Position numbers and translations under genes: made by a program | Shown here: positions 3,406 through 24,001 of the stretch, in pieces | How positions within the stretch are numbered: the stretch's first letter is position 1 | Layout: every line of letters starts with the position of its first letter | Source: Patescibacteria group bacterium | Lineage (GTDB): Bacteria; Patescibacteriota; Patescibacteriia; Patescibacteriales; JBAZCA01 | DNA length: 64,000 nt | Assembly: GCA_041671125.1 (NCBI GenBank) | Contig: JBAZCA010000004.1 | Span: forward strand, 87,029-151,028 | Direction: 5' to 3' | The notes under the pieces: model-generated | Seen by the model: only the letters and a program-made list of their open reading frames with translations | Databases searched by the model: none | What the model was told of the DNA's origin: nothing

Positions 3406-3406
3406 T
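3398..3406 (+). promoter_or_regulatory. Extended -10 box TGGTATAAT
   Basis: Exact TGnTATAAT overlapping the ksgA stop codon, upstream of the 3480 gene. Confidence 0.3.
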
Positions 3407-3479: not shown

Positions 3480-4223
3480 ATGCTTGATGACTTGGAAAAT
3501 AGAAATGTCGGCGGAGCCGGAGAGCAGAGGAACCAGTCGCCGGGTTTAAGAAAAAGCCAAAAGATTGCTGTGGCGGCTTTGGCGTTTTTTGCGTTGTTCA
3601 TTATGGTGATGTGGACTATCCAGTTTAAAAAAGGCCTTAGCGACCCTTTTGTCTATAAAGGGCCGGATACTTCTAATACCGCGGAAGGAAGCGCCTGCTC
3701 CGGACCCGACTGTCCGGCTGTCCAGGAAGCGCAAAAGAAAAAAGATACTGATAAAGACGGCTTAAGCGATTACGATGAAAATTATGTTTACAGGACTTCG
3801 GCGTACCTTGAAGATTCGGATTCGGACGGCTTAAGCGATAAAAAAGAAATTGACGCCAATAAAGACCCAAATTGCCCGGAAGGGAAAGAATGCTATCAAT
3901 CCCCGCTGATAAATTCCGAAGCCGGAGCCGAAGTGAATAACGGTGCTACCAACCAGAGCAATGAAGCGCTTAGTGAAATGCTGAAACAGTATGGTGCCAC
4001 GGATCCGGGCCTGATGCAAAATCCGTCAGCGGCTAGCGATGGTAGTCAGACTGGTTCCAGCCAAACGGGCGGGTCGGCGCAGGAATCGGCAACCGGTGAG
4101 ATAGACGCCAAGACTTTAAGACAATTGCTGATTGAACATGGAATGAATGAGCAGGCCTTAGCCGGAATCAGCGATGAGCAGCTGATGAAGAGTTTTGGCG
4201 AGGTGATGAGCCAGGGCCAGTAA
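3480..4223 (+). CDS. Membrane-anchored protein with two DxDxDGLSD calcium-binding (thrombospondin type 3-like) motifs
   Basis: One N-terminal hydrophobic helix (IAVAALAFFALFIMVMW). Motifs DTDKDGLSDYDE and DSDSDGLSDKKE. Confidence 0.5.
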   Translation: MLDDLENRNVGGAGEQRNQSPGLRKSQKIAVAALAFFALFIMVMWTIQFKKGLSDPFVYKGPDTSNTAEGSACSGPDCPAVQEAQKKKDTDKDGLSDYDENYVYRTSAYLEDSDSDGLSDKKEIDANKDPNCPEGKECYQSPLINSEAGAEVNNGATNQSNEALSEMLKQYGATDPGLMQNPSAASDGSQTGSSQTGGSAQESATGEIDAKTLRQLLIEHGMNEQALAGISDEQLMKSFGEVMSQGQ

Positions 4224-4289: not shown

Positions 4290-7200
4290 ATGGTTGGAAA
4301 AAAAGAAAAAAACAATAAGGTTATATCACTTTTGGTAATGATTTGTTTTTGCTTTTCAGTATCGGCGTCTGTTTTTATTTTCCCATTTTTTTCCCCTGAA
4401 GCAAAAGCGCAGAGTATAGGTCTCGAGGGAGCTACCTCGGAATTGGGGGGAATTGCCGCCGGAATGGGAATCACGGTTAAAGATCCTGGCGTAACGGCGG
4501 GGGTAGATAAAAATTATTTAGAGACTGCTACCGGCTGGCTGATGGATAGAGCGAGGGAAAATTGGAGAGATATGCTCTTTAACGCTTCCGCGCTGGCCTT
4601 TAAATCGGGTCTGCGGTTTTTTTTGAATGAGTTAGCTTACAACAGCGCCGTGTATCTCGCGACCGGCGATAAAGGGCAGACTCCGATGTTTTATACCGAT
4701 AGCTGGAAAGACTACCTGATAATGGCGGCGGACGGGGCGGCCGGCATGTTTTTAGATAAAATGGTAACGAATATCGGCAGCGCGACTGGCTGGTGGCAGA
4801 ATTTCAGCATTTGCGATCCGAATATAAACGTAAAAATTATGATCGCCCTCGGCCTCCGGCGGCAGATGTATGAGAGGCCGAGATGCACTTTTTCCCAGCT
4901 AACCGAGAATTGGGAATCCAAACTTTCCAGCCCGACTTTTTTAAATGATTTCCAGAATATGTTTAATCCCTGGGAGAGTGATATGGGAATCGCCTTAACC
5001 ATGCAGGCCGGAAGCGTTGATTACGCCCAAAAAGCGAAGGAGAATGCGACTTACCAGCGGCTGACAAACGATTTTAAGCCCATAACGGAAAAGATATCGG
5101 GATTTATAAAGAGTCCTTCCAGGGCGACGATGAAAGCCTTTGACAAGCCGATTGACGATTCGGACGCGCCGGAAAAAATATTCACCGGTTCTATGGCGGC
5201 GGATGCGATTGATATTTTTATCAGCACGTTAATCGGAAAACTGTTTGAGCAATGGCTGATGTCGGGGCTCGTATCCGAAGTGCCTTCCACTGTTGATTTG
5301 AGTAATCCGGAAATTGAAGCCTTAAATGATGATATTGAAGCCGCTAAAGAAAGATTTAGAAAATTAATAGAACCGCAGTTCGGCACGCGCGGCGATTATG
5401 ACATTTTAGTTGATTTAACATCCTGTCCGGATCCGTCTAAGCCCGGGCCGACCGATTGTGTGATAACGGAAAAATTTCGGCAGGCCGTCGCCAACCGGCT
5501 GACGGTCAAGGCGGCCATGGATCAGGGTTATCTTAATAAAAACGGAGTTTTCGGGTTCATCGCCGGAAAAAGCCTTGAGCCGAAGTTTGAAAACGGAGAT
5601 TATCCTTACCGTAGCCTCGTCATTTTAAGAAAATACCGGATTATTCCGGTCGGCTGGGAAATTGGCGCCCAGTATATAAAAATGGATAATCCTCAGGGCG
5701 GGAACGACCAAGGCAAGAATATCACTTTAAAGGAGATGGCGGAATGTTTTGAGGCTGATGACAACGTTGAAGGCTACGAAGAGCCTTGGTGTCGGGGACT
5801 CGTTGATCCGAATTGGGTCTTAAAGGCGCCTTTAAATTATTGCAAAAAGCTCGGTTACGGTCCGGAAATAATTTCAAAATCAATTACCGGCGATGGCGAT
5901 TCCAGCAAGACTAATATTTCAAGGAATGGCGATTATTGCGCTGACGAGCAGTCCTGCGTTAAAGAGAATTTTGACGGTTCCTGCCAGGTTTACGGCTATT
6001 GCTCCGAAGAGCGGAGAACCTGGAATTTTAATAACCGATCCTGCGATCCGAAATATAATACCTGCGAAATTTTTCGCTCGCGTTCCGGCAATACGGCTTC
6101 TTACCTTGAAAATACCCTGGACTATAACGGCTGTACGGCCGATAACGTCGGCTGTCTTGGTTATTGTAAGACCGAAAATTATGTTCCCGGCGTAAAAAAT
6201 ACGTCTTTTGTAATTGAGCAGGATTATGACGCCGGAGGAGGAAAGATTAGAACCAGGAAATGGGAACTCCCGGCGACTTTCCAGAATAATCAGACCGCCG
6301 CGGAATTTTATGGTTACCGGGACGCCCATTCGCTAATGGATAACCAATGGATTGTAAAAGCTGACCGGAGCGAATTTTTCATTCACTATAATACGGTTAC
6401 CGGAATATCCAGCATCGGCTGGCTCCATGACAAACCGCAACTGGTAAAGTGTCAGGCTTATATAAAACATCCGGAAGATCCTTATGACTCTCAGAGTGAA
6501 AATGACTGGTGTGTTGATTCCGCCAATCCAGGAGCCTGCGGTAACGGAGAAAATTGGCAGACGGCCGACCCTTCAGCTAACTGTTTTGATTTTGTCGAGT
6601 ATTGTAAGACCCATGAAGACGACAGATCTGACGAGGTAAATTGCGACGGCGGGGAAGCGGCGCTCGCGTTTAGTAAAATTACGGCCGGTAACAAAGTCGC
6701 GGTAAGGGATGACGCTGGAGACGCTAATAATAGCGGAATAGGAAATGAAATAAAACAAGGAGACAACTGGGAGGAAGGATGGACTAAAAAAAATACCGAC
6801 GGCGGCATGATTGAGATGCCGTCCGGGAACTGGGAAGTTGAGATCGCTCCGACGCTTACAGCCGGAATAAGCGAATTGGTTTTTGCTTATGAAGGAGGAA
6901 TGCTGGACGCGAGCCAAGGGTTTAAAGTGGTTTTGGGCGGAAGTAATTTGCCGTTTAGAATTAAGTCCAGCCCGGACACTTTAAGCGGAGAATGGCAATG
7001 CGAAGGAGCTAAAGATAAAATTTATTTTGACAAGGACGCGGAAAAATGCGATTCCGGAAACGAGGGTTGCCATGAATTCATAAGAACCAAAGCCGGAATC
7101 GGGGCGAACCTCCTTATCAATTCCGGGTTTGAGGATTATCTTGATATCGGCGGATGGGATAAATGGGGAAAAGCCGATTCTGATCGGAGAAGCGGGAGTA

Positions 7201-10200
7201 GCGCTTTGGCATTAAAAGACGGCGGCGTCAGCAAGGACGATGTTTCCCCGGGTCCGTGGGAAGTCGGCGAATATTTTACGCTTTCTTTATACGCGAAGAA
7301 TTGCGCGGGTCTTAAAGCTAAACTGGGAGACGCGGAGAGTGAGACCGGACTAAGCGGTTCTTCAGACTGGCAGAGGTTAATACTCAGCGCGAAAATGGAT
7401 GGTACGGGAATTGAAATAGCAATCGGGTTAAAAGAATACGCCGCCGGATGCGTTATAGACGACATAAAACTGGAAAGAAATGACAGCGCGAGCGACTGGA
7501 ACGAATATGGGGGGCCGGGAAAAATTTACGAAAAACTGATACCGGCTTATTTTGAAAACAGCGCGGAAAATGAAAACAGGAGCCATTGCTATGAAGATGT
7601 TAATCCGGACGACGGAGACGGTCTGGATTATACGTTCAGTAAAGACGCTTTGCCGGAATGTTCCAATTTTGCGAGAAAGTGCAATCCGGACGAAGCGAAT
7701 TGCGAATTATACACATCGATTCGGACTAAAGAAGCCATACCGGCGAAGATTTCAGCTAATGATTTATGCCCGTCAACCTGCGTTGGGTATGATATGTTCA
7801 TCCAAAAAGAAACCGGTTTTGATTCCGCGCGGCCCGAATACTTTATACCGAAAACCGCGAGAACCTGCGGTTATGTTTCAGCCGGATGCGATGAATTTAC
7901 CAATCTTGATGAACTGGAAAAAGGAGCGGAAAAAAAGGAGTATTATTCGGAGTTAAGGCAGTGCATAAAGCCCGCCGAGGCGGGCAGTCCCGGCTGTAAT
8001 GATTTTTACACCTGGGAAGGCTCAAGCGAAACCGGGTTCCAGCTTAAAGTTTTTCGGCTGAAGCAGGATGACGACGGCGAGGCAGGAGATCTATATAGCG
8101 GAGATCCGGCAATTACCGGAGATGATTCGGATAATTGCGGTGAAACCAGTTACGCCGACGGAACAGGAGGATCCGACTGCCGCCAGTTCTATAACCGCCA
8201 GGGCGGAATTTCTTACCACCTGTATTTAAAAACTATATCTTGCTCGGACGATTGCCATCCATACCGGCGGACGGAAAATAATACTTTAGATTCCGAGGCC
8301 AGGTGCAAAGAAGAATGTCCTGACTCAAACCAGGCCTGCGCCTGTTCAACAGACTGCGGAGCGGCCACGGGTAAGTTAAGCTGTAAAAAATCTAATACCG
8401 AGTATATTTATTGTAAAAACGGCGGAACCTGGCGAAATGACCATAATGCCTGCGTTTATTCGGCTATTCCGGGAGAAGGAAGAGCCTGCTCGGCCAGCCA
8501 GGCCGGTTGCCGCGAATATAACGGCAATAACGGCGCGAATGTCCGAACCATATTTTCCGATAATTTTGAAGACGGAACCGGTGATTGGACCGCGAACAAA
8601 GGGACGCTAGAGATTTCCGGCGAAGCGGTTTTTGTCGGCGAACATTCGCTCAAAGCTACCGTGAGCGGGACCGAAGTTGAACTTGTGAAACCGGTCGGAA
8701 CTTTGCTCGCGGATGATGATGAGAGTTCCTACATCTTAACTTTTACCGCCAAAAAATTAAAAGGAGGATCCGGCGGGCAGTGGATTGTTGACAATGGCAT
8801 CTATTTTTCAGACGGAACTGATAAGTCTTACTTTGAAATTGACGAGGAAACTAAAGCCGGCTTGGCCGGAGACGGAGACTGGCTTTTATATAAATTTAAT
8901 TTGAAAAAGCTTGATCATGCCGAAACCGACAAGGAAATTTTAGTAATTAAAGCTAATCAGGGATATTATATTGATAATATTAAACTCACGCAGACCATTG
9001 ACCGCTACTATCTTATTAAAAATTCCTGGAATACGCCCTTAGAATGTGATAACAAGATTGATGATCCTGAGGGGCAAAAGGCCTATGCGAGCGGAAGCGC
9101 CGGATGTAAAACAGCACTTCCGGATAGTGACGGAACTGTGAGGGCCTGCTTCCCCCAGGAAATGTTAAACTGCGACCAATATAAGGATCGGGAAAAGATT
9201 GATTACTACCTGAAAAGTTTTTCCGCGCTTTGCCAGGATTCGGCCGTCGGGTGCGAATTAATGGTTGATACCCATAATTCAACCAATCCGGAAGCAATGA
9301 GCTATGAAGACGGGGAAATAAGCGTGCCGGCCGATAATTTTATCTACGCGGTTTATGATAAGAAAAAAACCTGCAACGCGGCGGATAAAGGCTGCGAGCG
9401 GCTCGGCAAACCCTATAGTTATTCAGGCGATTCGGTTTATCAGAATGAATTTTTAAAGAATGACCCGGACGCGTATCCGAAGATTCTTTGCTCATCGTCC
9501 GAAGAAGGCTGCGAAGAATGGATCGCGACGGAGAGCGATAAAAATTATTTTAAGGATCCGGGCGACCAGGTCTGCGAATACCGGCAGGCTTTGGGATTGG
9601 GCGCGGGCTGGTGGAAAAAACAGGTAAAGAGATGCGACGACGGAAGCGGTGTCGGATCGTCGGTTAACGGAAAAATTGACGCGGAAATTAACGCCGAAGG
9701 CAATTCGGTCAAGGCTTCGGAGAATCAGATCTGCGTTGACACCGGCGGTTGCGGACGCACCGGAATAAAATGCGATTCTGACGAAGTTTGCGGAGCTTTT
9801 AGAACCTGCCTTGAAGGAGAGTGCCGCTATACCTGTATTCTGGACGCTAACAATTACGGTTGCCAGACTGATGCCAAAAAAGCTCCTAAAACCATAGGTT
9901 ATCCCGGAGCGCCAATAGAACAGCCGGACGAAGAAGAGATTAAAGACGTTAATGACATCGACAGAGACGGCAATACAGATGAAATAATTAAAACTATTAA
10001 ATGGGCCGGAGCCTGCCCGGCTTCTGAAGCAGGTTGTTCGGAATATATTGATCCGGTGAGCCGGTTTTTAACTAACGTTGTTTTTAATAGTGATTTTTCC
10101 CAGAACGTGGACAACGCGAACGGACCGGACGGCTGGAATTGCGACGCGAGGGAGGAAGATTGTTCGCAAGAACTGCAATTGTCTCCGAGCGCTCTGTATA

Positions 10201-13200
10201 TTATATCGGGCGAAAATCTTGCCGGCGGAAACGTAAGCTTAAAGGAAAAAGCGGCAGCGGCAAAAGATATTCATGAATTGATTGAAGGGGCCGGTAGCGG
10301 AGGAGCTAATTATTTCAAAGACGGGGAAAATTCAATATCTCTTGATTTGTCCGGTAATATACGGAAAAGCAAACGCTTTTACGTGTCGGGTAATGATATA
10401 ACCAACGGGACTCTTTCGGTAAAGGGCAAGGCGGACAATTCTACGCTGGAAATTAAGGAAGCGGCGATTAGCTACCAGCTTAAAAGGAATATTGATAAAA
10501 CTTCCTGCAACGGGCTGGTAAACTTTGACAACGGGTGCGTTTTGTTCAATGAAAGGACTTACGCCGGAGCCGGCTGGGCAGGACTCACCTTAAACGCCGA
10601 TTCCTCAAAAGACGGAGAAGCGCCGAAAACCGATTCGCCGGTAAATGCCAACGTTTTAATTAAGGTCGCTCCCGACCGGGTCTGCAATGAATGGCTGGCC
10701 TGCCGATCAGCCGTCGGCCTCGGAATAAAAAATGCGAGCAATTCCGAAGAGCAGGCTTGCTTTAATATTGGCACCTGCAACCAGATGGACGACAGCGGCA
10801 AATGCGTCAGTTTTTCCATTTCGGATGATGAAAGCGCAATGGAGGCGAAAGGAATCAAAGGCGCGCTAAGCAATGTTTCGGAATTCGCGAACCGTTCTGG
10901 TTATTCAAAAGTCGGAATAAAAACGGTTGACGACCCGGGGATGAAAGGCTACTTTGCTTTTGGCGATATGAATCAGATCGGCGAAGTGTCCACTGTTCCT
11001 AACGGAAATTTTGAAATTTATGGCAGTAATAAATATCCGATCGGCTGGTCTCCACAGAAAGGAAGTTGGAACATGAACCTTTTCTCGGCAATTAACAATC
11101 CTTACGCGGCTCAGGCTGAAGGAGGAATTTCCGGCCGGGGCGGAATCGGTTATCCGGTTGAAGGCGTAAGCTTACTTAAATATTCGGCCGCCATCCATCC
11201 CAAAGTCGGGCCGACTTCGGAATATATAGATGTTGAAAGAGGGGAATATGTTCTTAGCGCCAGGATTAATACTCTTGGTTTAAAATCCGTTGATTCCGCG
11301 ACAGTCAGAGCGGTTGTCGGGCTGGAATTTTTTAACTCTCAGGGAAACAGTCTGGCCTCCTCCTTAGAGCCTATTAACATGGACATGGCCGGAGACTGGA
11401 AGCTGAATGTGGCAAAATTTAAAGTGAGCGGATCAGCCAAAAGAATAAAACTTAACCTTACCAGTAAAATCGGGAATGATTATTGCCAGTCCGCCGTCGA
11501 TCCGGTCTTGAGATTATCAGACGGCGTTTCCAATATTGACTGTAACGAAGGCGCCTGGATGACTGTCGGGCCCGAAGACAACGGCGAAATTCAGAGCGAT
11601 TCATCGGGCCCGGAAATAAAGATAAGAAGCGATAATCAGACTCCGTCCGATTGCGCCACTGAAAAATGGAAGGCTGAAATACAGGACGCCAGCGGCGGCT
11701 GGCATGAAGTTTATTCGGGTGATTCCTGCAATTTAGAAAACGGCAGTAATTTTTTAATAAACATGGAAGATTTCGGGCTTTCGTCCATAAAAAATGTCCG
11801 GGCGACCTGTACCGGTACCGGATCGGATGAATGCGTGTCCTGCCCGGATATTAGCGATTGGCATTTTATCAGCCTGGCCCCGGCATATAATATTTCCAAC
11901 TCAAAGTGCTCGGGAAATATTTACATAGACGACATAAAAATAAAACCGGCGCTTGCCGCTCGCCCGGAATGGAACATAACCCAGTCCTGTCGGCTCTATC
12001 CGCAGTCCGATTCCCTTTCCTGCGATTACTTTAACGATTCAGGCCTCCGGGAAAAAGGCCTTTACGGCTACTGCCTCCAGTACGACCGGTCTCCGGGCTC
12101 GCCGGAAAATTGCCTTCAGTGGTGGCCGGTTGATAAGGTAAAAGGCGACGGTATAGAAGAAGGCGCCGGGTATCAAGGCAGATATCCGTTGTATTATACG
12201 ACTGACATAGAGGATATAAGCCATTGCTCAAGTTATGAATTAGTCGGAGTGAAAAAAAATCAAGTTTTTACGACTCCAGCCATGCACTGTGATAGCTTCG
12301 GCGATGAGTGCGATGACGATCGCGTAGAAGTAATTTTTGACGCAGTAAGAATGGAAAAGAGACTAAATCCCGGGCCATTTCCAGGGTTTACATTCAGTTG
12401 TTCCGAGGATGGGGTTAATATGCAATATACTGGAGCCGGACTTAATCCCGTATATTCAGATTCAACATATGATTGGTTTTGTACTTCTGATTCTTTTGTT
12501 CCCGAACTGATTGAAATAAACGCGCCTTGCGGAGCTGAGGCAATCTTTGATCCAGGTCCGCGCAAACCATGGTATAAGTTTATTGCTACTAAGATTATTC
12601 AGGTTGTTACTCCGTCAGGACAGAATAAATATTGGAGTGGTAGAGTTTATAATGGAAGCACTTTTAACTATAGTTGCAACGCAGGCTTGCCTGACGGTTT
12701 ATTGCCGGATCCTAACTATAGGAATTGCGAATATGGATATGACTATCCTCCTTTCGGCTCTCTTGTTTATCCTTACCCTTCGGCTAATCCTTATGAATGG
12801 GACGGCAAAGGCGATTTAGGTATCCAGCCATTATATTATGAACTTCCGGATACGGAAAATTACTCCGCGCCTTATCAGCCGAGAACCGGACAGCTAAGTA
12901 CGGAAGACAATATCAAAAACCTTTTTGCCCAAAGCTACGGCAACTGGCAATGGGACGGGAGTAATTATGTTCCATACAATTCCAGCTGTGTCGGCGGAAG
13001 TAATGACAAGAAAGTCTGTATAATTGACGCGGATTGTCCGGGAGGCGCTTGCACCGGCAATAATTGGACTTCGCCGGGAATAGTTTGTCCGACTGTTAGC
13101 GGAGAGATATTAAGACCGGAATTTAATTCAGCCGCCCCAAGCGCCGACCTTTGCGCTGTCCCTCCCCTGATCTATAACATAAAAGTCAACGCTACTTCAA

Positions 13201-13607
13201 CGGTTGACGTAGAAATCATAAAGAACGGCTACGTCAACTTCACTTTTAACAGCCATATTGACTCGCAGCAGCTGCCCCTCACTATGATTTCGGTTGACTG
13301 GGGAGATTTAGAAAACACCATAATAACCGGGGTGGAAATGCGCGACCGCCAGGATCCGGTTAATCCGCATTCGCTCTATCACCTGTATGATTATTGGGAT
13401 TTAAAAAGAAAGGCGGCGGATACGAGCCCGAGGGGTCTAGACGTTTCGGATATTGACTGCCCGGCGGGAGGAAATTTTTGTCTCGTAAGGCCGAGAATAA
13501 AAATCATGGATAACTGGGGTTGGTGCACGAGCGGAACTACCGGCGACAATTGTCCTAGCAACGGCTATATTGAATTTTCGCATTGGATTGTTGTAAAGGA
13601 GAGGTGA
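4290..13607 (+). CDS. Giant (3105 aa) Cys-rich secreted/surface protein with several beta-sandwich (CBM4/9- or laminin-G-like) modules
   Basis: Uninterrupted 9.3-kb ORF with an N-terminal hydrophobic signal/anchor (ISLLVMICFCFSVSASVFIFPFF). Cys-rich throughout. Recurrent N-x-x-F-E type module starts (NLLINSGFEDY, FSDNFEDGTGDW, VPNGNFEIYG). Ends with TGA. Confidence 0.8.
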   Translation: MVGKKEKNNKVISLLVMICFCFSVSASVFIFPFFSPEAKAQSIGLEGATSELGGIAAGMGITVKDPGVTAGVDKNYLETATGWLMDRARENWRDMLFNASALAFKSGLRFFLNELAYNSAVYLATGDKGQTPMFYTDSWKDYLIMAADGAAGMFLDKMVTNIGSATGWWQNFSICDPNINVKIMIALGLRRQMYERPRCTFSQLTENWESKLSSPTFLNDFQNMFNPWESDMGIALTMQAGSVDYAQKAKENATYQRLTNDFKPITEKISGFIKSPSRATMKAFDKPIDDSDAPEKIFTGSMAADAIDIFISTLIGKLFEQWLMSGLVSEVPSTVDLSNPEIEALNDDIEAAKERFRKLIEPQFGTRGDYDILVDLTSCPDPSKPGPTDCVITEKFRQAVANRLTVKAAMDQGYLNKNGVFGFIAGKSLEPKFENGDYPYRSLVILRKYRIIPVGWEIGAQYIKMDNPQGGNDQGKNITLKEMAECFEADDNVEGYEEPWCRGLVDPNWVLKAPLNYCKKLGYGPEIISKSITGDGDSSKTNISRNGDYCADEQSCVKENFDGSCQVYGYCSEERRTWNFNNRSCDPKYNTCEIFRSRSGNTASYLENTLDYNGCTADNVGCLGYCKTENYVPGVKNTSFVIEQDYDAGGGKIRTRKWELPATFQNNQTAAEFYGYRDAHSLMDNQWIVKADRSEFFIHYNTVTGISSIGWLHDKPQLVKCQAYIKHPEDPYDSQSENDWCVDSANPGACGNGENWQTADPSANCFDFVEYCKTHEDDRSDEVNCDGGEAALAFSKITAGNKVAVRDDAGDANNSGIGNEIKQGDNWEEGWTKKNTDGGMIEMPSGNWEVEIAPTLTAGISELVFAYEGGMLDASQGFKVVLGGSNLPFRIKSSPDTLSGEWQCEGAKDKIYFDKDAEKCDSGNEGCHEFIRTKAGIGANLLINSGFEDYLDIGGWDKWGKADSDRRSGSSALALKDGGVSKDDVSPGPWEVGEYFTLSLYAKNCAGLKAKLGDAESETGLSGSSDWQRLILSAKMDGTGIEIAIGLKEYAAGCVIDDIKLERNDSASDWNEYGGPGKIYEKLIPAYFENSAENENRSHCYEDVNPDDGDGLDYTFSKDALPECSNFARKCNPDEANCELYTSIRTKEAIPAKISANDLCPSTCVGYDMFIQKETGFDSARPEYFIPKTARTCGYVSAGCDEFTNLDELEKGAEKKEYYSELRQCIKPAEAGSPGCNDFYTWEGSSETGFQLKVFRLKQDDDGEAGDLYSGDPAITGDDSDNCGETSYADGTGGSDCRQFYNRQGGISYHLYLKTISCSDDCHPYRRTENNTLDSEARCKEECPDSNQACACSTDCGAATGKLSCKKSNTEYIYCKNGGTWRNDHNACVYSAIPGEGRACSASQAGCREYNGNNGANVRTIFSDNFEDGTGDWTANKGTLEISGEAVFVGEHSLKATVSGTEVELVKPVGTLLADDDESSYILTFTAKKLKGGSGGQWIVDNGIYFSDGTDKSYFEIDEETKAGLAGDGDWLLYKFNLKKLDHAETDKEILVIKANQGYYIDNIKLTQTIDRYYLIKNSWNTPLECDNKIDDPEGQKAYASGSAGCKTALPDSDGTVRACFPQEMLNCDQYKDREKIDYYLKSFSALCQDSAVGCELMVDTHNSTNPEAMSYEDGEISVPADNFIYAVYDKKKTCNAADKGCERLGKPYSYSGDSVYQNEFLKNDPDAYPKILCSSSEEGCEEWIATESDKNYFKDPGDQVCEYRQALGLGAGWWKKQVKRCDDGSGVGSSVNGKIDAEINAEGNSVKASENQICVDTGGCGRTGIKCDSDEVCGAFRTCLEGECRYTCILDANNYGCQTDAKKAPKTIGYPGAPIEQPDEEEIKDVNDIDRDGNTDEIIKTIKWAGACPASEAGCSEYIDPVSRFLTNVVFNSDFSQNVDNANGPDGWNCDAREEDCSQELQLSPSALYIISGENLAGGNVSLKEKAAAAKDIHELIEGAGSGGANYFKDGENSISLDLSGNIRKSKRFYVSGNDITNGTLSVKGKADNSTLEIKEAAISYQLKRNIDKTSCNGLVNFDNGCVLFNERTYAGAGWAGLTLNADSSKDGEAPKTDSPVNANVLIKVAPDRVCNEWLACRSAVGLGIKNASNSEEQACFNIGTCNQMDDSGKCVSFSISDDESAMEAKGIKGALSNVSEFANRSGYSKVGIKTVDDPGMKGYFAFGDMNQIGEVSTVPNGNFEIYGSNKYPIGWSPQKGSWNMNLFSAINNPYAAQAEGGISGRGGIGYPVEGVSLLKYSAAIHPKVGPTSEYIDVERGEYVLSARINTLGLKSVDSATVRAVVGLEFFNSQGNSLASSLEPINMDMAGDWKLNVAKFKVSGSAKRIKLNLTSKIGNDYCQSAVDPVLRLSDGVSNIDCNEGAWMTVGPEDNGEIQSDSSGPEIKIRSDNQTPSDCATEKWKAEIQDASGGWHEVYSGDSCNLENGSNFLINMEDFGLSSIKNVRATCTGTGSDECVSCPDISDWHFISLAPAYNISNSKCSGNIYIDDIKIKPALAARPEWNITQSCRLYPQSDSLSCDYFNDSGLREKGLYGYCLQYDRSPGSPENCLQWWPVDKVKGDGIEEGAGYQGRYPLYYTTDIEDISHCSSYELVGVKKNQVFTTPAMHCDSFGDECDDDRVEVIFDAVRMEKRLNPGPFPGFTFSCSEDGVNMQYTGAGLNPVYSDSTYDWFCTSDSFVPELIEINAPCGAEAIFDPGPRKPWYKFIATKIIQVVTPSGQNKYWSGRVYNGSTFNYSCNAGLPDGLLPDPNYRNCEYGYDYPPFGSLVYPYPSANPYEWDGKGDLGIQPLYYELPDTENYSAPYQPRTGQLSTEDNIKNLFAQSYGNWQWDGSNYVPYNSSCVGGSNDKKVCIIDADCPGGACTGNNWTSPGIVCPTVSGEILRPEFNSAAPSADLCAVPPLIYNIKVNATSTVDVEIIKNGYVNFTFNSHIDSQQLPLTMISVDWGDLENTIITGVEMRDRQDPVNPHSLYHLYDYWDLKRKAADTSPRGLDVSDIDCPAGGNFCLVRPRIKIMDNWGWCTSGTTGDNCPSNGYIEFSHWIVVKER

Positions 13608-13767
13608 ATTGTCTGAACCGCTGATTTCGCCGAGAACGCTGATGTCTTTGATTTATGTTATGTCACGGCAGAATCTCCTGAAAAGGGATTCTGCCGGTAG
13701 AAAAATTTTAGAATTAAAGAATTAGAAATTGTTTAAAAATTGAAAATTAGAAATTGAAAATTTAGAC

Positions 13768-14436
13768 ATGTCTGATATAAATGAAAACATATTCCGGGAA
13801 AAAGTTTTGGGGAAAGAGCTTAGCGGCGAAAGTCAGGCGCGGGCGGCCGGGGACAGGTTAAGGCAGGATAAGGCGGAGAGCGCGAGTAAAAAAAGAACTG
13901 AAAATCAGACCGCCGGAAACCGGAGAGGGCTCAGGATGCCGGAGACAGGAAGCGGGAATAATGGTAATATGGATAGTATGCGGGACGAACAGGATGGCGA
14001 TAAAAACAACGAGCCGGAAAGACTTAATGATCCGGTTGAGCAGGCAAAAGCGGCCGGGGATTTAGCGAAAGGAGAAAAAGAAGCTAAAGAAAAGGGAGAT
14101 AAAAAGAAAGATGAGTCTGGCGAAGAAGGTTTAGTGCAAGGATTTTTCGCGAAAAAAATAAAGAATAAAATATACAGCTCCATTCCGGGGTTTAACCTAG
14201 TCTGGGCGTTATGGAGGTTTTTAAGCGGAAAGAAATTGAAACTGGATATTGGCGATATTTTTTTGATGTCGTTTTCAAGTCTGACCGCGTTGTTTGTGGT
14301 ATTAGCTACAACCGGCTTTATAGTAATGATTACCACCTTTATGTTCCATCCCTGGGAGGCGACGAAAACTTTGGTAAGCGCGCTTTGGAGTGGATTAGAC
14401 TGGAGCGCGTTCAAGGCTATAGCCGACTTATTTTAA
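13768..14436 (+). CDS. Small protein with charged low-complexity N-terminus and two C-terminal transmembrane helices
   Basis: K/E/D/G-rich N-terminal half. C-terminal hydrophobic segments FNLVWALWRFL and LTALFVVLATTGFIVMITTFMF. Confidence 0.5.
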   Translation: MSDINENIFREKVLGKELSGESQARAAGDRLRQDKAESASKKRTENQTAGNRRGLRMPETGSGNNGNMDSMRDEQDGDKNNEPERLNDPVEQAKAAGDLAKGEKEAKEKGDKKKDESGEEGLVQGFFAKKIKNKIYSSIPGFNLVWALWRFLSGKKLKLDIGDIFLMSFSSLTALFVVLATTGFIVMITTFMFHPWEATKTLVSALWSGLDWSAFKAIADLF

Positions 14437-14479
14437 AATCAGGCGCGTCTAAAGAAAAGTAAGTAACAGCTAATCTTAA

Positions 14480-17218
14480 ATGTTTAATATTACTGAAAAG
14501 AAAAATAAATTTTATAGTTTTATCCATCAAAACAGGCGGATTATTTTTTCGTTCGCAGGGAGTATTTTATTATTATTTGTCGCGAATAATACGGCGTATG
14601 CCGTTGATAATTCTTCTGGTGTGCTTGGAACGGTTTCCAATGCGGTAGGCGGAGTCGTGGCGACGCTCATCGCCATAATCGCGTTGCTGGTTTCTTCCGC
14701 GCTCGGGCTTTTATCAACCCTGCTAATCCAAGTTTTGATCAACATAGCCAGCTATAGCAGTTTTACGGGCGCCCAAGCAGTTATAACTGGCTGGGTTATT
14801 ATTAGGGATATATGCAACATGTTTTTTATATTAATTCTCTTAATAATCGCTTTTGCTACGATTTTAAGGGTTGAAAGTTATAATATAAAAAAAACTTTGC
14901 CAAAACTGCTTATAATGGCGGTGCTTATTAACTTTTCCAAAACAATTTTCGGTTTAATAACTGATTCAGCCCAGATAGTCATGATGACTTTTGTCAACGC
15001 TTTTTCCCAGGGGGCGGGGTTTTTTGTAAATATGCTCAATATTGTTGACATATATAAAGGAGTAGCGTTATCAGGCACCGGATGGGAGAATTGGAAAGTA
15101 GCAGCCACACTAATATTGGCGGTTATTGCTTCCATAGTCACGGTCATCATATTAGGGGTAATGATAGCGGTGCTCACAGTAAGAATTGTGATGATTTGGA
15201 TTTATACGATTTTTTCGCCTTTGGTATTTTTAGGCTTTGCTTTTCCGCCTATTGCTAAATATACCGGCCAGATCTGGCAGGATTTTATTAAGCAGGTAAT
15301 AGTCGGACCGGTTCTGGCGTTTTTTATTTGGCTGGCTCTAACTACCCAGCAAAGCACTCCGTTAGTAAATCAAACGACCGTATGCGCAGGAGTGGCCGAA
15401 TTTTTTTGCGAAGGAAATTTTCAAAAATTTATCATAACCATCGGCCTTTTAATGGGCGGGATGATGGCCGCCCAGCAGATGGGCGGGGCGGCGGCGAGTA
15501 TCGCCGGGAAAGGTTTAAATTGGGCGAAAGCGGTGGCGGGTACTCCAGGAAAATTGGCGCTCGGAACACCGGGCTGGGTGGCTGGTAAAATAAAAATGGG
15601 GGCATTTTCGGATTTATTGGCAACAAAGAAAACAGTGGATGTTCATGATGAAGCGGGAAATGTTATCGGCCAAAAGACGAAATATGTCGGAAAAAAATGG
15701 AGCAGGGGAGTTGGAGGCGCGCTGGCTAATTTTGCTTATGGACTGGAATTAAATCCAGTGAATATGTATAAGGGTATTAAGGAGGGGTTGGCTTCAAAGA
15801 CTGAAAAAGACAAGATGAGGGGAATCGTCGCATCCTCAGACGCCTTAAAAGGTGGTGGAGTTTTGGGTTTAGTCAAAGGACTCGGGGTTTCCAGAGATAT
15901 GACCGAGGCGCTGGCGCATGGATTTTTTTGGGCGGATGGATTTAAGAGAGTGATAGCGGTTGCCAGAGGAACGGATAGAAAGAGAATGGGAATTTCCAAG
16001 GAACTGGATAAAGCTTTTGCGGAACAAAAGGCTCTGGAGAAAGACGGAAAATATTCCAAATCGCAAATTGACGGGCAGAGAGAAAAAGCTATGGATGCCA
16101 AGGAGCGCTATGATAATGCTGATCGGTCTGCCACTTCTCCGGAAGAATTAAATAAGCTGGTAGAAGCGGCAAAAGAAGAGAATAGAATTCTTAAAGAAAT
16201 GGAAGCGAATTTTGATAGTGAAAAAGATAATAAAGTTTCATTAAATAATAATAAAATAGAACAGCTAAGAACGGACATGACTCATTACCGGCCGATTCAG
16301 ACCTTCTACGCTGATCGCGATCGGGACGCTTTAATTTCGCAGACCCAGCAAAAATTAGGCAATACTAATAATGAAGATTTATTGAAAGAATTGTTTAAGA
16401 ACGCAATTGCCAATAAAGACCGGGAAGCGGCGGCCGCTATTATGCTTCATGCCGCCCGAGTTGGGCATCTAAACGAAATGATCCATTCTTGGACCTCAAA
16501 GAAAGACGTTAAGGAAGAATATATTGATGAAAATGGTAACAAGAAAGAGAGAATAGTAATTGGCGAAGGTAAAAAATTACATCAAAGCGGGTTGGGACTG
16601 AATGAATTAGTTAACCAAGCGCTTATTAGCGAATTAGGCATGAGTGAACAGCAGGCTTACGCAGTGCAGGCGGACGCGAGCATGTTGGCTAAATCAGTTG
16701 GTCATTTTAATATGGCTGAAACTATAACTTCCGAAAACGGACGTTTGAAACAATTAAGCCAGGCAAATCATATGGGAAGAATCAGGGGAGAGGCGAGAAA
16801 AGTTGATGCTAGAACGTATCTTAGGAATTATAACCGGATAGCCCATGGAGACGAAATAGAAGCCGAAGACGGCTCAGGAAGAGATTTTAAAATCAATGAT
16901 CTCGGTTTCAGAACATTTCTGGAAAACCCTGGAGCTTACAGATATCTTGTTCTCAGGAATGAATTTAATAAAAATGCGGCTATGAATATAGCCAGAGATA
17001 AGAAGCGTTTGTTTGAATTTGTAGATAAATTAAAAGGGGCGGGAACGGAGACATATTGGGATGAATATGAGAAGAAAGAAGTCTCTTATAAGGATGTAGC
17101 CGATTCTCTTGTTAAATACGGAGAAATAATCAGTAAGACTTCCGTAGGAGAAGGTAAAGAAAAGCTAGGAGTTGATGAGGCTATAAAACAAATGCGAGAA
17201 TCCGGAGCTAAGAGTTAA
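14480..17218 (+). CDS. Polytopic membrane protein (about 8-10 TM) with ~500-aa charged coiled-coil-like C-terminal domain; possible VirB6/TrbL-like channel component
   Basis: N-terminal signal-like helix followed by many hydrophobic helices up to about aa 330, then a long K/E-rich soluble region. The VirB6-like call is topology-based only. Confidence 0.55.
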   Translation: MFNITEKKNKFYSFIHQNRRIIFSFAGSILLLFVANNTAYAVDNSSGVLGTVSNAVGGVVATLIAIIALLVSSALGLLSTLLIQVLINIASYSSFTGAQAVITGWVIIRDICNMFFILILLIIAFATILRVESYNIKKTLPKLLIMAVLINFSKTIFGLITDSAQIVMMTFVNAFSQGAGFFVNMLNIVDIYKGVALSGTGWENWKVAATLILAVIASIVTVIILGVMIAVLTVRIVMIWIYTIFSPLVFLGFAFPPIAKYTGQIWQDFIKQVIVGPVLAFFIWLALTTQQSTPLVNQTTVCAGVAEFFCEGNFQKFIITIGLLMGGMMAAQQMGGAAASIAGKGLNWAKAVAGTPGKLALGTPGWVAGKIKMGAFSDLLATKKTVDVHDEAGNVIGQKTKYVGKKWSRGVGGALANFAYGLELNPVNMYKGIKEGLASKTEKDKMRGIVASSDALKGGGVLGLVKGLGVSRDMTEALAHGFFWADGFKRVIAVARGTDRKRMGISKELDKAFAEQKALEKDGKYSKSQIDGQREKAMDAKERYDNADRSATSPEELNKLVEAAKEENRILKEMEANFDSEKDNKVSLNNNKIEQLRTDMTHYRPIQTFYADRDRDALISQTQQKLGNTNNEDLLKELFKNAIANKDREAAAAIMLHAARVGHLNEMIHSWTSKKDVKEEYIDENGNKKERIVIGEGKKLHQSGLGLNELVNQALISELGMSEQQAYAVQADASMLAKSVGHFNMAETITSENGRLKQLSQANHMGRIRGEARKVDARTYLRNYNRIAHGDEIEAEDGSGRDFKINDLGFRTFLENPGAYRYLVLRNEFNKNAAMNIARDKKRLFEFVDKLKGAGTETYWDEYEKKEVSYKDVADSLVKYGEIISKTSVGEGKEKLGVDEAIKQMRESGAKS

Positions 17219-17232
17219 ATATTTTAAGTAAT

Positions 17233-18156
17233 ATGGCGCAACAAACAAAATTAAAAGATCAGGAATTCTTCGCGAAAGTTCAGAAAACAGCCGAGGATTT
17301 GATTAATGATAATAATTTTACCGAAGCTTATAATCTTGGCGCGGGATTGAATGACAGTATAGAAAAAGCGAAAAATTTTAAAATTGAATCGCAGGAGCTG
17401 TACCGGAAATATAAGGAGTTAGCGATTAAATTACTCTGGATTGGACTGCCGGTTATGACCAAAAATGAAGTGAGAAGGATATTCCGCGATCATTTTGTTA
17501 AGAGTTTTGCTATTTTCGGATATGACCATTGGGTTAAATTAAAACCCATCTTGCTCGCGATAATGTCATTGGACGATCGGGATGCCTTTAAAAAGCAGTT
17601 AACTCAGGTCTTGGCGGAGAATCAGGAGAAAATTACCAATAAGAAACTCCTAATCAGCAGCGAAGAAAAAGATCCGACGGTCGGCAATTGGATTCTTGAT
17701 TATAACCGAAGCCTTGGGACTTCGGGAATGAGTGGAATCGCGAGAACTCAGTATCTAGTTAATAGTATAAACATAAAAAATCTTTCCAAAGAAGAAAAGG
17801 AGAGAATTCAAAAACTTTTTGAGTTGTATGAGCGGCTTAAATTATCTTCACAGACTCTTGAGGGCTATGAAATGGATGTTCCGGTAAATGAGATGGGGGT
17901 AAACGGAACAATCCGGCAGGGAGTTTTTGAGCCGACTCCGCCGGAAACAAAGAACGATAAAATTATCCAAAGGATAATTGATGAAATGATGGGGCGGATC
18001 AAGCCGACGGCAAGCGGCGGTGAGGATGTGGTTGGAGGCACAAAAGGGGTTCAAAATGAACTCACTCAGCTAAAAATCCTCGCCTCCGAATACCCGGCCG
18101 GGTCGCTTGAGCGTAGGGCGATTGAGGAGGAGATGGGGAAGCTGAATGCTGAATAA
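17233..18156 (+). CDS. Hypothetical soluble protein
   Basis: 307-aa ORF starting 14 bp after the previous gene. No motif recognised. Confidence 0.5.
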   Translation: MAQQTKLKDQEFFAKVQKTAEDLINDNNFTEAYNLGAGLNDSIEKAKNFKIESQELYRKYKELAIKLLWIGLPVMTKNEVRRIFRDHFVKSFAIFGYDHWVKLKPILLAIMSLDDRDAFKKQLTQVLAENQEKITNKKLLISSEEKDPTVGNWILDYNRSLGTSGMSGIARTQYLVNSINIKNLSKEEKERIQKLFELYERLKLSSQTLEGYEMDVPVNEMGVNGTIRQGVFEPTPPETKNDKIIQRIIDEMMGRIKPTASGGEDVVGGTKGVQNELTQLKILASEYPAGSLERRAIEEEMGKLNAE

Positions 18157-18271: not shown

Positions 18272-18904
18272 ATGTCGGAACTAATCCCCTACGAAAACAT
18301 TAAAACTAAAATTTACCTGATCCGGGGCCAAAAGGTTATGATTGACCGCGATTTGGCTGTGCTTTACGGGGTTGAGACGAAGAGACTGAATGAACAAGTA
18401 AGGAGAAATATTAAAAGATTTCCTTCGGATTTTATGTTTCAGCTTTCGAGAAAAGAATATGAAAACTTGATATTCCAATTTGGCATTTCAAGTTTAGAAA
18501 TTGGCGAAGGTGAAGTTAACTTGAAGTCGCAAAATGCGACCTTGAACGAGAAAGTGGGCGAAAATTCGCAAATTTCAAGGTCGCAAAATGCGACCTTGAA
18601 AGACAGAAGAGGTTCTAATGTTAAATATCTGCCTTACGCCTTTACCGAGCACGGTGTGGCTATGCTCTCCAGCGTTCTAAAAAGCGAGCGAGCCGTAGAA
18701 ATAAATATCGCGATAATCCGGACATTTATTAAATTGCGTGATTTTGCCTTAAACTACAAGGCGCTGGCGGAAAAGATTAACGAACTGGAAAGCGGCTATA
18801 AAAATCATGATAAAAAGATCGTAGAAATATTCGCGGCGCTAAGGCTGATGGCAAGGAATGACGGGAATGAAATAAAAGAGGAAATCGGATTTAAGGCTGT
18901 CTGA
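18272..18904 (+). CDS. ORF6N-domain (KilA-N-like) DNA-binding protein
   Basis: N-terminus IYLIRGQKVMIDRDLAVLYGVETKRLNEQVRRNIKRFPSDFMFQL and YLPYAFTEHGVAMLSSVLKSERAVEINIAIIRTF are typical ORF6N signatures. Internal duplicated KSQNATL segment. Confidence 0.75.
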   Translation: MSELIPYENIKTKIYLIRGQKVMIDRDLAVLYGVETKRLNEQVRRNIKRFPSDFMFQLSRKEYENLIFQFGISSLEIGEGEVNLKSQNATLNEKVGENSQISRSQNATLKDRRGSNVKYLPYAFTEHGVAMLSSVLKSERAVEINIAIIRTFIKLRDFALNYKALAEKINELESGYKNHDKKIVEIFAALRLMARNDGNEIKEEIGFKAV

Positions 18905-18958
18905 TAAAGCCGGACGCGGATAATTGACGGCGAAATGATTTTTAGGCAAACTGAATAA

Positions 18959-19954
18959 ATGAAAAATAACAAACTCAACATACTCGTCTCCGGCTCGCTA
19001 GCCATTGATCGGATTATGGACTTTCCGGGGTATTTTCGGGATCATATCCTGCCGGATAAAATCCATAATTTAAACGTCTCATTTAATATCAGCGAACTGC
19101 GGGAAAATTTCGGCGGCACGGCCGGCAATATCGCTTATAACCTGGCTTTACTCGGTGAAAAGCCGGTGGTTTTAGCGACGGCCGGAGCTGACTTCGCGCC
19201 GTATAGGGCATGGTTAAAAAAACAAGGGGTGGACATTTCACATGTTAAGGAAATTAGTAACAAACTCATGGCTTCGGCCTACATAATAACCGACAAGGAT
19301 GATAATCAGATCACCGGTTTTAACATGGGCGCCATGAATGCTCCGCTCGGAAAATTTAACGAAAAACTGTTAAAAAATTCTTTGGCCATAGTTTCGCCGG
19401 GCAATACCCGTGACATGGAAAAATACGCCCGGCTTTACCAGAAAAAAAAGGTGAAGTATATTTTTGATCCCGGCCAGGCCATGACCGCCTTAAGCGATGA
19501 CGTCCTGCGAATGGCCAGCGCCGGGGCGGAGATCGTCATCGGCAATGATTACGAAATTGAATTATTGAAAAAGCGGACCGGGTGGACAACCGATAAATTA
19601 GCTGATAAACTGAAAAAGTTAATTATCACCAAAGGCGCGCGGGGTTCGGAGCTATATACTCCTATTACAAATTCACAAATTATTTCACAAATACACAAAT
19701 ACGGTGGAAAAAGTAAAATTATTATAAGGGCGGTGAAAGCCAAAGTTCTAAAAGACCCGACCGGCGCCGGGGACGCTTACCGGGCCGGGCTGATCAAGGG
19801 TTTGGCCTTGGGTTGGGAACTGGAAAAATGCGCTCAGCTCGCCAGTACAGTAGCATCATACGCGGTGGAAAAATACGGGACGCAGAAGCACTATTTTAGC
19901 TGGAAGGACTTAGAGGGAAGATATGGGATAACTTATAAAGAAAGTTTAATGTAA
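18959..19954 (+). CDS. PfkB-family carbohydrate/nucleoside kinase (adenosine kinase-like by context)
   Basis: C-terminal DPTGAGDAYRAG motif and N-terminal GG dipeptide region (NFGGTAGNIAYN). Located next to ahcY/metK. Confidence 0.8.
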   Translation: MKNNKLNILVSGSLAIDRIMDFPGYFRDHILPDKIHNLNVSFNISELRENFGGTAGNIAYNLALLGEKPVVLATAGADFAPYRAWLKKQGVDISHVKEISNKLMASAYIITDKDDNQITGFNMGAMNAPLGKFNEKLLKNSLAIVSPGNTRDMEKYARLYQKKKVKYIFDPGQAMTALSDDVLRMASAGAEIVIGNDYEIELLKKRTGWTTDKLADKLKKLIITKGARGSELYTPITNSQIISQIHKYGGKSKIIIRAVKAKVLKDPTGAGDAYRAGLIKGLALGWELEKCAQLASTVASYAVEKYGTQKHYFSWKDLEGRYGITYKESLM

Positions 19955-19973
19955 AAATTAAAAATCAAAATGT

Positions 19974-20077
19974 AAAATTAATTCGTCATTCTGAGGCCGA
20001 AGGCCGAAGAATCTCGTGATAATAGCTCTGTTCACGGGATCCTTCGCTACGCTCAGGATGACGAGAAAAAATTTGTC
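19974..20077. repeat. Palindromic element family R1, intergenic copy (104 bp, identical to 22833..22936)
   Basis: Core gtcattctgaggccgaaggccgaagaatctcgtgataatagctctgttcacgggatccttcgctacgctcaggatgac, plus shared flanks. Confidence 0.9.
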
Positions 20078-20106
20078 ATTTTGATTTTTGATTTTTACAT
20101 TTTAAA

Positions 20107-21417: not shown

Positions 21418-21421
21418 ATAG

Positions 21422-21523
21422 AATTTTTAATTTTTAATTTTTGAATTTTTAAAGTCCAAATTTTTCAACAAAAAAATCAAGGCATAGTTACTTAAAAATT
21501 ACAAAATTAAAAATTAAAAATTT
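21422..21523. repeat. Long AT-rich inverted repeat (about 30-bp arms) between ahcY and metK
   Basis: aatttttaatttttaatttttgaatttttaa pairs with ttaaaaattacaaaattaaaaattaaaaattt. Confidence 0.7.
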
Positions 21524-21616
21524 AATTTAAGGAAGACTAGTGGATGAGGATAGTGGGTTTTAATAGTTTTTGCTATTTACTTACTGTCCTTATCTCCTGG
21601 CTTCCTAAAAAATCGT

Positions 21617-22780: not shown

Positions 22781-22832
22781 GATAGTTTAAACATTAAAAA
22801 CATCTAAACAGAAATTAAAAATTTAAAATGCA

Positions 22833-22936: not shown

Positions 22937-22963
22937 TTTTGATTTTTTATTTTTGCATTCGTT

Positions 22964-23976: not shown

Positions 23977-24001
23977 TCAGTTTTTTGTTTTTGGAAAAAT
24001 G

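Follow-up and report, generated by a model that had tools for sequence, protein, structure and literature searches.

A giant cysteine-rich protein and a predicted extended VirB6 are encoded in a conserved gene module of Patescibacteria

What does a giant, cysteine-rich, predicted extracytoplasmic protein do when its gene is packed against genes for small and polytopic membrane proteins? This question is raised by a 64,000-nucleotide stretch from a Patescibacteria group bacterium (GenBank assembly GCA_041671125.1, contig JBAZCA010000004.1, positions 87,029 to 151,028; hereafter “the window”, meaning the whole stretch analyzed), in which four co-oriented open reading frames (ORFs) on the + strand encode proteins of 3105, 222, 912, and 307 amino acids (aa), separated by gaps of 160, 43, and 14 bp (Table 1), just as the original prediction, made from the sequence alone, had laid out. 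We consider it moderately probable that these four genes, along with the TSP3-like gene directly 5′ of them, constitute the envelope module of a chromosomal type IV secretion system (T4SS)-like system of Patescibacteria, in a Falkowbacteria-like (ABY1-type) variant. Within this system, synteny points to the giant protein as most likely a disulfide-stabilized, glycan-binding host-contact component working with a VirB6 platform.

From family profiles and a structural model, we conclude that the 912-aa protein represents an extended VirB6, i.e., a polytopic membrane domain with a predicted TrbL/VirB6 fold followed by a large C-terminal domain without known fold. This identification is based on TrbL matches in relatives, structural matches to TrwI, and contiguity with PrgI, TrsD, and VirB4 genes in 23 of 50 species-level loci. 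More than 1000 homologs were found, in Patescibacteria only, and 11 of 54 relatives matched the Pfam TrbL/VirB6 profile (PF04610; best E 1.3e-6), including a single one (P0026) above the curated TrbL cut-off (28.8 vs 25.9 bits) and another (P0086) spanning profile positions 10–209 of 215. The matched region corresponds to aa ~110–320 of the window protein, where the invariant motifs of the family sit (invariant residues W105, R109, D110, N113, M114, P141, K142, N151, F152, and S153). An AlphaFold2 (AF2) model built with 110 homologs reached a mean predicted local distance difference test (pLDDT) score of 85.6, and its top six Foldseek matches in the PDB were all TrwI/VirB6 chains of R388 (best match 7o3v_F, probability 1.00, target-normalized TM-score 0.54). 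The likeness to TrwI (7o3v) thus extends to the same polytopic helical fold in the model, and to the TrbL profile at the family level, while no unrelated transporter family was matched in Foldseek or profile searches. In the window, the 912-aa protein is the sole VirB6-like protein among the scanned ORFs, and PrgI, TrsD, and VirB4 lie 6.8 kb 3′ of its gene. That it could be the VirB6-like partner of these downstream genes had been suggested in the original prediction and is borne out here. Other parts of that description did not survive: about 7 transmembrane (TM) helices, all in aa 1–345, were found instead of 8–10, the supposed coiled-coil-like domain is globular in the model, and the statement that no motif could be assigned fails for this protein given the TrbL/VirB6 profile in relatives and the TrwI fold.

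The C-terminal domain (~530 residues) was modeled as mostly helical with β-hairpins, mostly at pLDDT >90, and neither fold search nor sequence profile identified a PDB counterpart. It is probably cytoplasmic, as suggested by the positive loops at aa 130–142, 245–271, and 343–375, a conserved Cys pair in the 292–313 loop, and the Cys-free, Lys/Glu-rich composition of the domain itself. A large hydrophilic extension is also a feature of extended VirB6 proteins (PMC12857230); unlike in TrwI and these proteins, however, the C-terminal domain here has no PDB relative and the window protein falls below Pfam detection. A similar layout is found in TcpH of the Clostridium perfringens plasmid pCW3, in which an N-terminal polytopic VirB6-like region precedes a large C-terminal domain (~830 aa total), and PrgH of the Enterococcus plasmid pCF10 adjoins PrgI and VirB4, yet neither displays significant profile similarity to the 912-aa family, so that the likeness to TcpH is one of architecture only. 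The VirB6-like protein encoded 3′ of the giant can be larger still: in L093 (20874–27044), which represents one of the distant lineages, it reaches 2056 aa, over double its normal size.

Gene order was evaluated from both sides of the locus: a VirB6-side scan in which each GTDB species was represented by a single genome (502 loci, with figures taken from 80 of these), and a giant-side scan of 80 metagenome loci, using as denominators the loci with enough flanking sequence. Synteny across related genomes proved very strong. Seven homologs of the 912-aa protein (31–73% identity) all displayed the same gene order, i.e., (KsgA), TSP3-like protein, giant, small TM protein, VirB6-like protein, and ~300-aa protein, and genes at orthologous loci overlapped or were separated by gaps of 0–30 bp. 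At the species level, the giant was encoded 5′ of the VirB6-like protein in 40 of 44 loci and the 307-aa family 3′ of it in 63 of 65; PrgI/TrsD/VirB4 were within reach in 37 of 50 loci and contiguous with the block in 23 of these 50. From the giant side, a VirB6-like gene followed in 30 of 32 metagenome loci, and a TSP3-like gene preceded in 56 of 60. Three distant giants (26–35% identity, some with a dockerin) still had KsgA and a TSP3-like gene 5′ and VirB6-like and 307-aa-like genes 3′. On a 772-kb contig (L007), the block runs on directly into genes for a ~485-aa protein, PrgI, a TraC/TrsD-like protein, VirB4, a ~196-aa protein, and ComF. The order and orientation of the block are thus kept across hundreds of Patescibacteria species. 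Overall, we conclude that the locus is made of two modules, joined or parted by housekeeping genes: a fixed module A (TSP3-like protein, giant, small TM protein where present, VirB6, and 307-aa protein), and a module B (541-aa protein, PrgI, TrsD, VirB4, 211-aa protein, and ComF), with module A sharing a locus with PrgI/TrsD/VirB4 in many lineages.

Some loci departed from this pattern. In four (L055, L072, L079, and L082), no giant was found within 9–10 kb 5′ of the VirB6-like gene, and in six others from one sub-lineage (L059, L067, L071, L075, L083, and L089), 3–5 extra genes (~6–8 kb, some Cys-rich) lie between the giant and the VirB6-like gene; loci with a “missing” giant have a few inserted genes, and the giant may lie outside the 10-kb flank. 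An ORF6N gene was found in ~15 of 80 loci at varying positions, either 5′ of the giant, in the gap between giant and small TM protein, or 3′ of the 307-aa gene (window 18272–18904; L001 8643–9260; L005 995–1603; L009 8810–9319), and may represent a mobile gene or a regulator of the locus. In the window, the T4SS locus is split at 18959–23881 by S-adenosylmethionine-cycle and related genes (PfkB-type kinase, AdoHcyase, MetK, and EamA); riboflavin genes are also found at this site in some genomes. Many GTDB records with this locus (L012, L016, L018, L055, and others) carry titles such as “uncultured Gammaproteobacteria bacterium” or “Planctomycetota bacterium”, which are probably placeholder or wrong labels.

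Several observations weigh against an envelope module of a T4SS. The 912-aa protein of the window itself had no Pfam match at E ≤ 1 and no NCBIfam match, the Foldseek E-value for the TrwI/VirB6 match was just 0.12, and the topology of the protein is ambiguous around aa 49–130. The hhalign comparisons with pCF10 PrgH (probability 1.6%) and pCW3 TcpH (2.8%) were not significant, which accords with a published observation that VirB6 homologs of Patescibacteria mostly fit the profile of mating-pair formation (MPF) type T and not that of PrgH (PMC12102498). The N-terminal domain of the giant, which we propose to be involved in docking, was modeled poorly (pLDDT 51.7), and gene order is the one line of evidence that ties the giant functionally to the T4SS. 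This line is itself weaker than it seems, because the housekeeping genes KsgA, PfkB, AdoHcyase, and MetK are likewise syntenic here. Finally, in three distant lineages, no VirB4 was found within 10 kb of the giant/VirB6 pair.

The synteny of unrelated housekeeping genes is what would be expected if the adjacency were simply inherited gene order, and the giant an ordinary surface adhesin or surface-layer (S-layer)-associated glycan-binding protein with no tie to the T4SS. Carbohydrate-binding modules (CBMs) and dockerins are indeed typical of free-standing surface proteins, and large Cys-rich surface proteins are common in the candidate phyla radiation (PMC4736985). However, the adjacency survives down to ~26–35% identity between giants, with genes tightly packed or overlapping, even as the metabolic block and the ORF6N gene are present in some loci and absent from others, and the giant evolves slowly like a machine core rather than a variable adhesin, so that we hold this explanation to be very unlikely. 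The lineages without a nearby VirB4 bear on another alternative, namely an autonomous attachment module made up of the giant and the VirB6-like protein, in which a VirB6-type domain would have been co-opted as anchor or platform and would work independently of the VirB4 machine. The giant–VirB6 adjacency is tighter than that between VirB6 and VirB4, the PfkB/AdoHcyase/MetK block sits 3′ of the 307-aa gene in 27 of 50 loci, as in the window, and VirB6-like proteins can grow to 2056 aa. Against this stand the 23 of 50 loci in which the block is contiguous with PrgI-TrsD-VirB4, the lack of another VirB6 candidate for the VirB4 module of the window, and the place of VirB6 among the core T4SS subunits, with an essential role in the Saccharibacterium system (PMC12102498, PMC10633639). 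We consider an autonomous module unlikely, and retain a T4SS envelope module as the preferred reading.

If the giant belongs to this module, what kind of protein is it? It is Cys-rich, as anticipated in the original prediction, and carries a single hydrophobic segment, which is N-terminal (aa 9–36) and Sec-type by hydropathy. Its 114 Cys amount to 3.7% of residues, compared with 0–0.3% in the cytoplasmic/soluble proteins of the locus, dozens of them fall in alignment columns that are invariant across the family, and the motif C-x6-GC-x-E-[FYW] occurs ~9 times. Sequence and hydropathy identified neither an LPXTG motif nor a C-terminal TM segment, and the protein ends in ...SHWIVVKER. All homologs of the giant are Patescibacteria proteins of 2000–3800 aa. 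A HMMER search with aa 81–640 retrieved 1276 cluster representatives (988 with E ≤ 1e-30), and among the 150 matches listed this domain was invariably located at or near the N-terminus of giants or giant fragments, all Patescibacteria-type. Conservation extends over aa 100–640, 900–2400, 2550–2650, and 2950–3100, interrupted by variable inserts at aa 650–900, 2400–2530, and 2650–2950. The most conserved part (aa 85–640) combines a helical region with a Cys-rich α/β region that include the invariant motifs RKYRIIPVGWE and YGYCxEERR. An AF2 model of the N-terminal 645 aa, built from 32 full-length homologs, was confident for aa ~370–500 only and yielded no Foldseek match in the PDB.

Searches with the giant as a single sequence provided little information: the PDB search was uninformative, and Pfam/NCBIfam scans of the whole protein and of ten segments returned nothing significant, i.e., no FhaB, haemagglutinin, RTX, or autotransporter match and no adhesin domain, with the CBM Pfam match of the window giant below threshold and a weak NCBIfam similarity to Myxococcus Cys-rich repeats. 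The family profile, in contrast, matched CBM structures of the PDB at three separate positions, corresponding to CBM22-, CBM4-, and CBM16-type β-sandwich modules: a xylanase CBM for module 1 (4xup, E 1.5e-6; also a weak match to Pfam CBM_4_9), a laminarinase CBM for module 2 (1gui, E 9e-4), and the CBM of an S-layer-associated endoglucanase for module 3 (2zew, E 4e-3). Pfam CBM_4_9 (PF02018) was also found in about half of the giant homologs, and dockerin in some. This suggests that the giant is a glycan-binding-type protein with at least three predicted CBM-like modules; the multi-β-sandwich architecture previously proposed for it is therefore supported for these three modules only, through the family profile.

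The rate at which the giant evolves is also informative. Across the same genome pairs, identity was 35–41% for the giant, 41–56% for the VirB6 TM domain, 0–64% for the VirB6 C-terminal domain, and 29–65% for the 307-aa protein, while the small TM protein had no BLAST-detectable similarity past its closest relative. Because its identity is close to that of the VirB6 core, the giant appears to evolve as slowly as the machine core, and hence to behave like a structural component rather than a fast-evolving adhesin. These features argue strongly against the giant being a T4SS substrate or effector moved into the host. Its gene does lie beside T4SS genes, and the Patescibacteria T4SS has been proposed to export proteins (PMC10633639), but its Sec-type N-terminal signal and mostly conserved Cys imply folding and oxidation outside the cytoplasm, its end-to-end conservation is that of a structural protein, and no toxin or enzyme domain was detected in the Pfam/NCBIfam scans; we regard this possibility as extremely unlikely. 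Similarly, the four genes had been suggested to form a dedicated membrane apparatus for export, anchoring, or use of the giant: export by the T4SS apparatus is unlikely because the giant carries a Sec-type N-terminus of its own and conserved Cys that need oxidation outside the cytoplasm, whereas anchoring, or use in host attachment, is consistent with the synteny.

Large surface proteins that mediate cell contact are encoded in other T4SS loci, examples being PrgB/PrgC of pCF10 and, in the Helicobacter Cag T4SS, CagY. Like the giant, CagY is of very large size, and it has cysteine-containing repeats. The giant displays no sequence similarity to these proteins, no LPXTG anchor, and no VirB10 domain, and has instead CBM-like modules and its own repeated Cys motif. 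Very large, Cys-rich, signal-bearing extracellular proteins were also described in Peribacteria and proposed to function in attachment (PMC4736985). Like the giant, these are weakly similar to Myxococcus Cys-rich repeats; however, they are strain-variable and without T4SS link (PMC4736985), whereas the giant family is conserved throughout its length and keeps its place beside VirB6. The FhaB-like giants of Patescibacterium danicum represent yet another, rapidly changing family (PMC11809585).

The T4SS part of the locus is already known, since a Patescibacteria T4SS has been described, consisting of VirB4, TrsD, PrgI, and VirB6, with comF in ABY1 and without relaxase (PMC12102498, PMC7427843). 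Its VirB4 clade is sister to MPF-FATA (Quinonero-Coronel et al. 2025, PMC12102498), the split VirB4 arrangement has been reported, and the system is essential to the epibiotic growth of a Saccharibacterium (Wang et al. 2023, PMC10633639; PMC12857230). The window conforms to this description, with a chromosomal CD1110-type VirB4 (NCBIfam, 9e-107), TrsD-like piece (NCBIfam, 1e-6), PrgI/VirB3 (Pfam, 4e-7), VirB6, and ComF/GntX, with KsgA, recG, and radA nearby, with no relaxase or VirD4/coupling protein among the window ORFs scanned, and with no DNA-binding domain in Pfam/NCBIfam scans of the module ORFs. VirB4 is divided between two genes (26089–28692), one for a TrsD-like N-terminal protein of 226 aa and one for an ATPase of 638 aa, and the genes for the 211-aa bitopic and ComF/GntX-like proteins are conserved 3′ of it. 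What differs from the published T4SS is that a Cys-rich giant of 2300–3800 aa, the TSP3-like anchor, and the 307-aa protein are here constant companions of VirB6; published descriptions name no giant protein (PMC12102498, PMC10633639), and no adhesins were detected for the Patescibacteria T4SS (PMC12102498). The giant as a conserved partner is thus absent from published descriptions, and we found no account of the giant family or its VirB6 linkage in the literature searched, which left out most subscription-journal papers.

The composition of module B raises the possibility of a DNA-uptake or exchange machine akin to ComB or Ced, in which the giant would capture host cells or extracellular polymers and the channel would import DNA for ComF, RecG, and RadA. 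ComF/GntX is indeed encoded directly 3′ of VirB4, the window also contains a type IV pilus cluster as well as RecG and RadA, VirB4 weakly matches CedB (NCBIfam), a comF/recG/radA association has been noted in ABY1 (PMC12102498), and the 307-aa protein has a weak match to a helix-two-turns-helix (H2TH) domain (see below). However, the H2TH match is marginal, and the module ORFs lack the relaxase, coupling protein, and DNA-binding domains mentioned above. In addition, according to a passage of PMC12857230 citing Wang 2023, loss of ComEC in the one Patescibacterium tested ended competence while viability was unaffected, so that the essential role of the T4SS in that organism would not be transformation-based DNA acquisition. 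We therefore regard DNA uptake as distinctly unlikely, and continue to favor the envelope module with a host-contact giant.

The smaller proteins of the module would fit around the giant and VirB6. The TSP3-like gene is conserved directly 5′ of the giant. The 222-aa protein is poorly conserved in sequence but not in design, i.e., a long charged disordered head followed by a hydrophobic hairpin. Two TM helices had been assigned to it: a strong one was recovered at aa 160–195, the preceding one is weaker in the window protein, and the eight syntenic orthologs have two hydrophobic helices with a charged loop of 10–30 aa between them. The hairpin design and the position directly 5′ of the VirB6 gene recall PrgF of pCF10, recently proposed as a VirB2-like pilin (bioRxiv 10.64898/2025.12.18.695078). 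However, where PrgF has a short leader, the 222-aa protein carries an atypical charged N-terminal extension of 130 aa, and its gene is missing in some lineages, including the three distant ones. No Pfam match, including TrbC/VirB2 and T4SS_pilin, was found for the eight orthologs, hhalign identified no match between the family and PrgF, and no recognizable VirB2-type pilin was detected elsewhere in the window. The protein may be a pilin-like or assembly subunit.

On the other side of VirB6, the 307-aa protein is soluble and Cys-free, with an invariant C-terminal motif (YPxGSLERRAIEEE) and no Pfam match; NCBIfam returned nothing significant for it or for the 222-aa protein. Its family has 29 homologs, all hypothetical and known from these loci only. 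A marginal but reproducible match of aa ~137–206 to the H2TH domain of TopoVI-B (E 0.003–0.007), not improved by a deeper profile (E 0.003, then 0.007), hints at nucleic-acid binding and provides a lead. No Pfam or PDB match was obtained for the 541-aa protein; overlapping tblastn hits had raised a suspicion that it is a paralog of the 307-aa protein, which was rejected by hhalign.

Between the giant and the 222-aa gene, the 160-bp gap contains a stable RNA hairpin (13666–13696) with a perfect 10-bp stem, which none of 200 shuffles equaled in stability, followed 3′ by an AT-rich stretch with repeated GAAATT/GAAAATT. This putative element could act as an attenuator, an mRNA stabilizer, or an internal promoter region. 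The strongest promoter-like site of the region in the scan (3377–3406) lies 5′ of the TSP3-like gene, although promoter and terminator scans of the region displayed no enrichment over shuffles.

Table 1 Features of the giant–VirB6 locus and related genes in the window. Coordinates are positions in the window.
Feature	Coordinates	Strand	Basis
247-aa membrane-anchored protein with TSP3-type Ca-binding repeats	3480–4223	+	Weak Pfam TSP3_bac match, TM aa 25–50
Giant Cys-rich protein, 3105 aa, predicted extracytoplasmic	4290–13607	+	ORF, 114 Cys, N-terminal hydrophobic segment
Giant: signal peptide or signal anchor, aa 9–36, then AKA|Q (putative cleavage)	4314–4397	+	Hydropathy and sequence
Giant: most conserved part, aa 85–640	4542–6209	+	40–52% identity to orthologs, invariant columns
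Giant: lineage-specific insert, aa 649–898	6234–6983	+	Unaligned in 6 orthologs and ~110/120 homologs
Giant: CBM-like β-sandwich module 1, aa 938–1063	7101–7478	+	Family profile vs PDB 4xup
Giant: CBM-like β-sandwich module 2, aa 1423–1566	8556–8987	+	Family profile vs 1gui
Giant: CBM-like β-sandwich module 3 with insert, aa 2288–2551	11151–11942	+	Family profile vs 2zew
Stable RNA stem-loop in the 160-bp gap 3′ of the giant gene	13666–13696	+	ΔG −22.8 kcal/mol, z −4.5
222-aa protein: charged disordered head (~130 aa) and hydrophobic helical hairpin	13768–14436	+	8-ortholog alignment, hydropathy
912-aa protein, whole ORF	14480–17218	+	ORF
912-aa protein: VirB6/TrbL-like polytopic membrane domain, aa 1–345	14480–15514	+	Pfam in relatives, Foldseek
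912-aa protein: C-terminal domain, aa ~380–890	15617–17149	+	pLDDT mostly >90
307-aa soluble Cys-free protein	17233–18156	+	ORF, synteny
Interruption: ORF6N gene, then PfkB, AdoHcyase, MetK, EamA	18272–23881	+	Pfam, synteny
541-aa conserved soluble protein, always directly 5′ of PrgI	23985–25610	+	Synteny, alignment
PrgI (VirB3-like), TrsD-like VirB4 N-terminal piece, CD1110-family VirB4 ATPase	25615–28692	+	Pfam, NCBIfam
211-aa bitopic protein (candidate VirB8 analog) and ComF/GntX-like protein	28831–30354	+	TM prediction; DZR_2 and PRTase domains
DsbA-like gene	43363–44115	−	–

The window also encodes a 747-aa NHL-repeat protein with a Cys-rich C-terminal tail, which lies 5′ of KsgA (82–2325) and outside the conserved module, and, further 3′, an LPXTG-anchored, ice-binding-like protein of 602 aa that contains DUF7507 repeats and is followed by a sortase gene (31904–34486), and an 805-aa double ATP-grasp/D-Ala-D-Ala-ligase-like fusion followed by GNAT-like and SET-domain proteins (34644–38881). 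The last part (39698–63572) includes RecG, RadA, the DsbA-like protein, whose presence elsewhere in the window had been correctly noted in the original prediction, and a full type IV pilus cluster (PilM, PilB, PilT-like ATPase, PilC, several N-methyl pilins, and prepilin peptidase), after which an 801-aa protein and a fn3-like 563-aa protein are encoded.

Returning to the preferred reading, i.e., an envelope module of a Patescibacteria T4SS, the giant would be exported by Sec and oxidized outside the cell, a DsbA-like gene being located nearby. Its conserved N-terminal ~600 residues would hold it at the membrane complex through VirB6 loops, the small TM protein, and/or the TSP3-like anchor, leaving the CBM-like β-sandwich and Cys-knot modules to project outward and bind host-surface glycans, so that the giant would supply the contact or adhesin function given to other T4SSs by PrgB-type adhesins or pili. 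The VirB6 C-terminal domain and the 307-aa protein would act on the cytoplasmic side, presumably linking to the TrsD/VirB4 ATPase. A bolder version can be imagined, which we offer as speculation and think rather unlikely: in an ABY1-type T4SS without recognizable pilus or adhesin, one disulfide-laced giant of 2300–3800 residues on an extended VirB6 might bridge the parasite envelope to the host wall, serving both as a glycan-binding grapple and as an extracellular guide for VirB4 cargo, be it host DNA, nucleotides, or effectors.

Few machines have been shown to be essential to the epibiotic life of a Patescibacterium, and the T4SS is among them; the published survey of this system reports no adhesin. 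Slow-evolving, of a glycan-binding type, and encoded beside VirB6 across hundreds of species, the giant readily suggests itself as a candidate for the host-contact part that is missing, a role that is plausible from comparative genomics only. Four or five new protein families can be defined from the locus as well. If the bolder version is correct, a giant docked on an extended VirB6 would constitute a previously unrecognized T4SS architecture.

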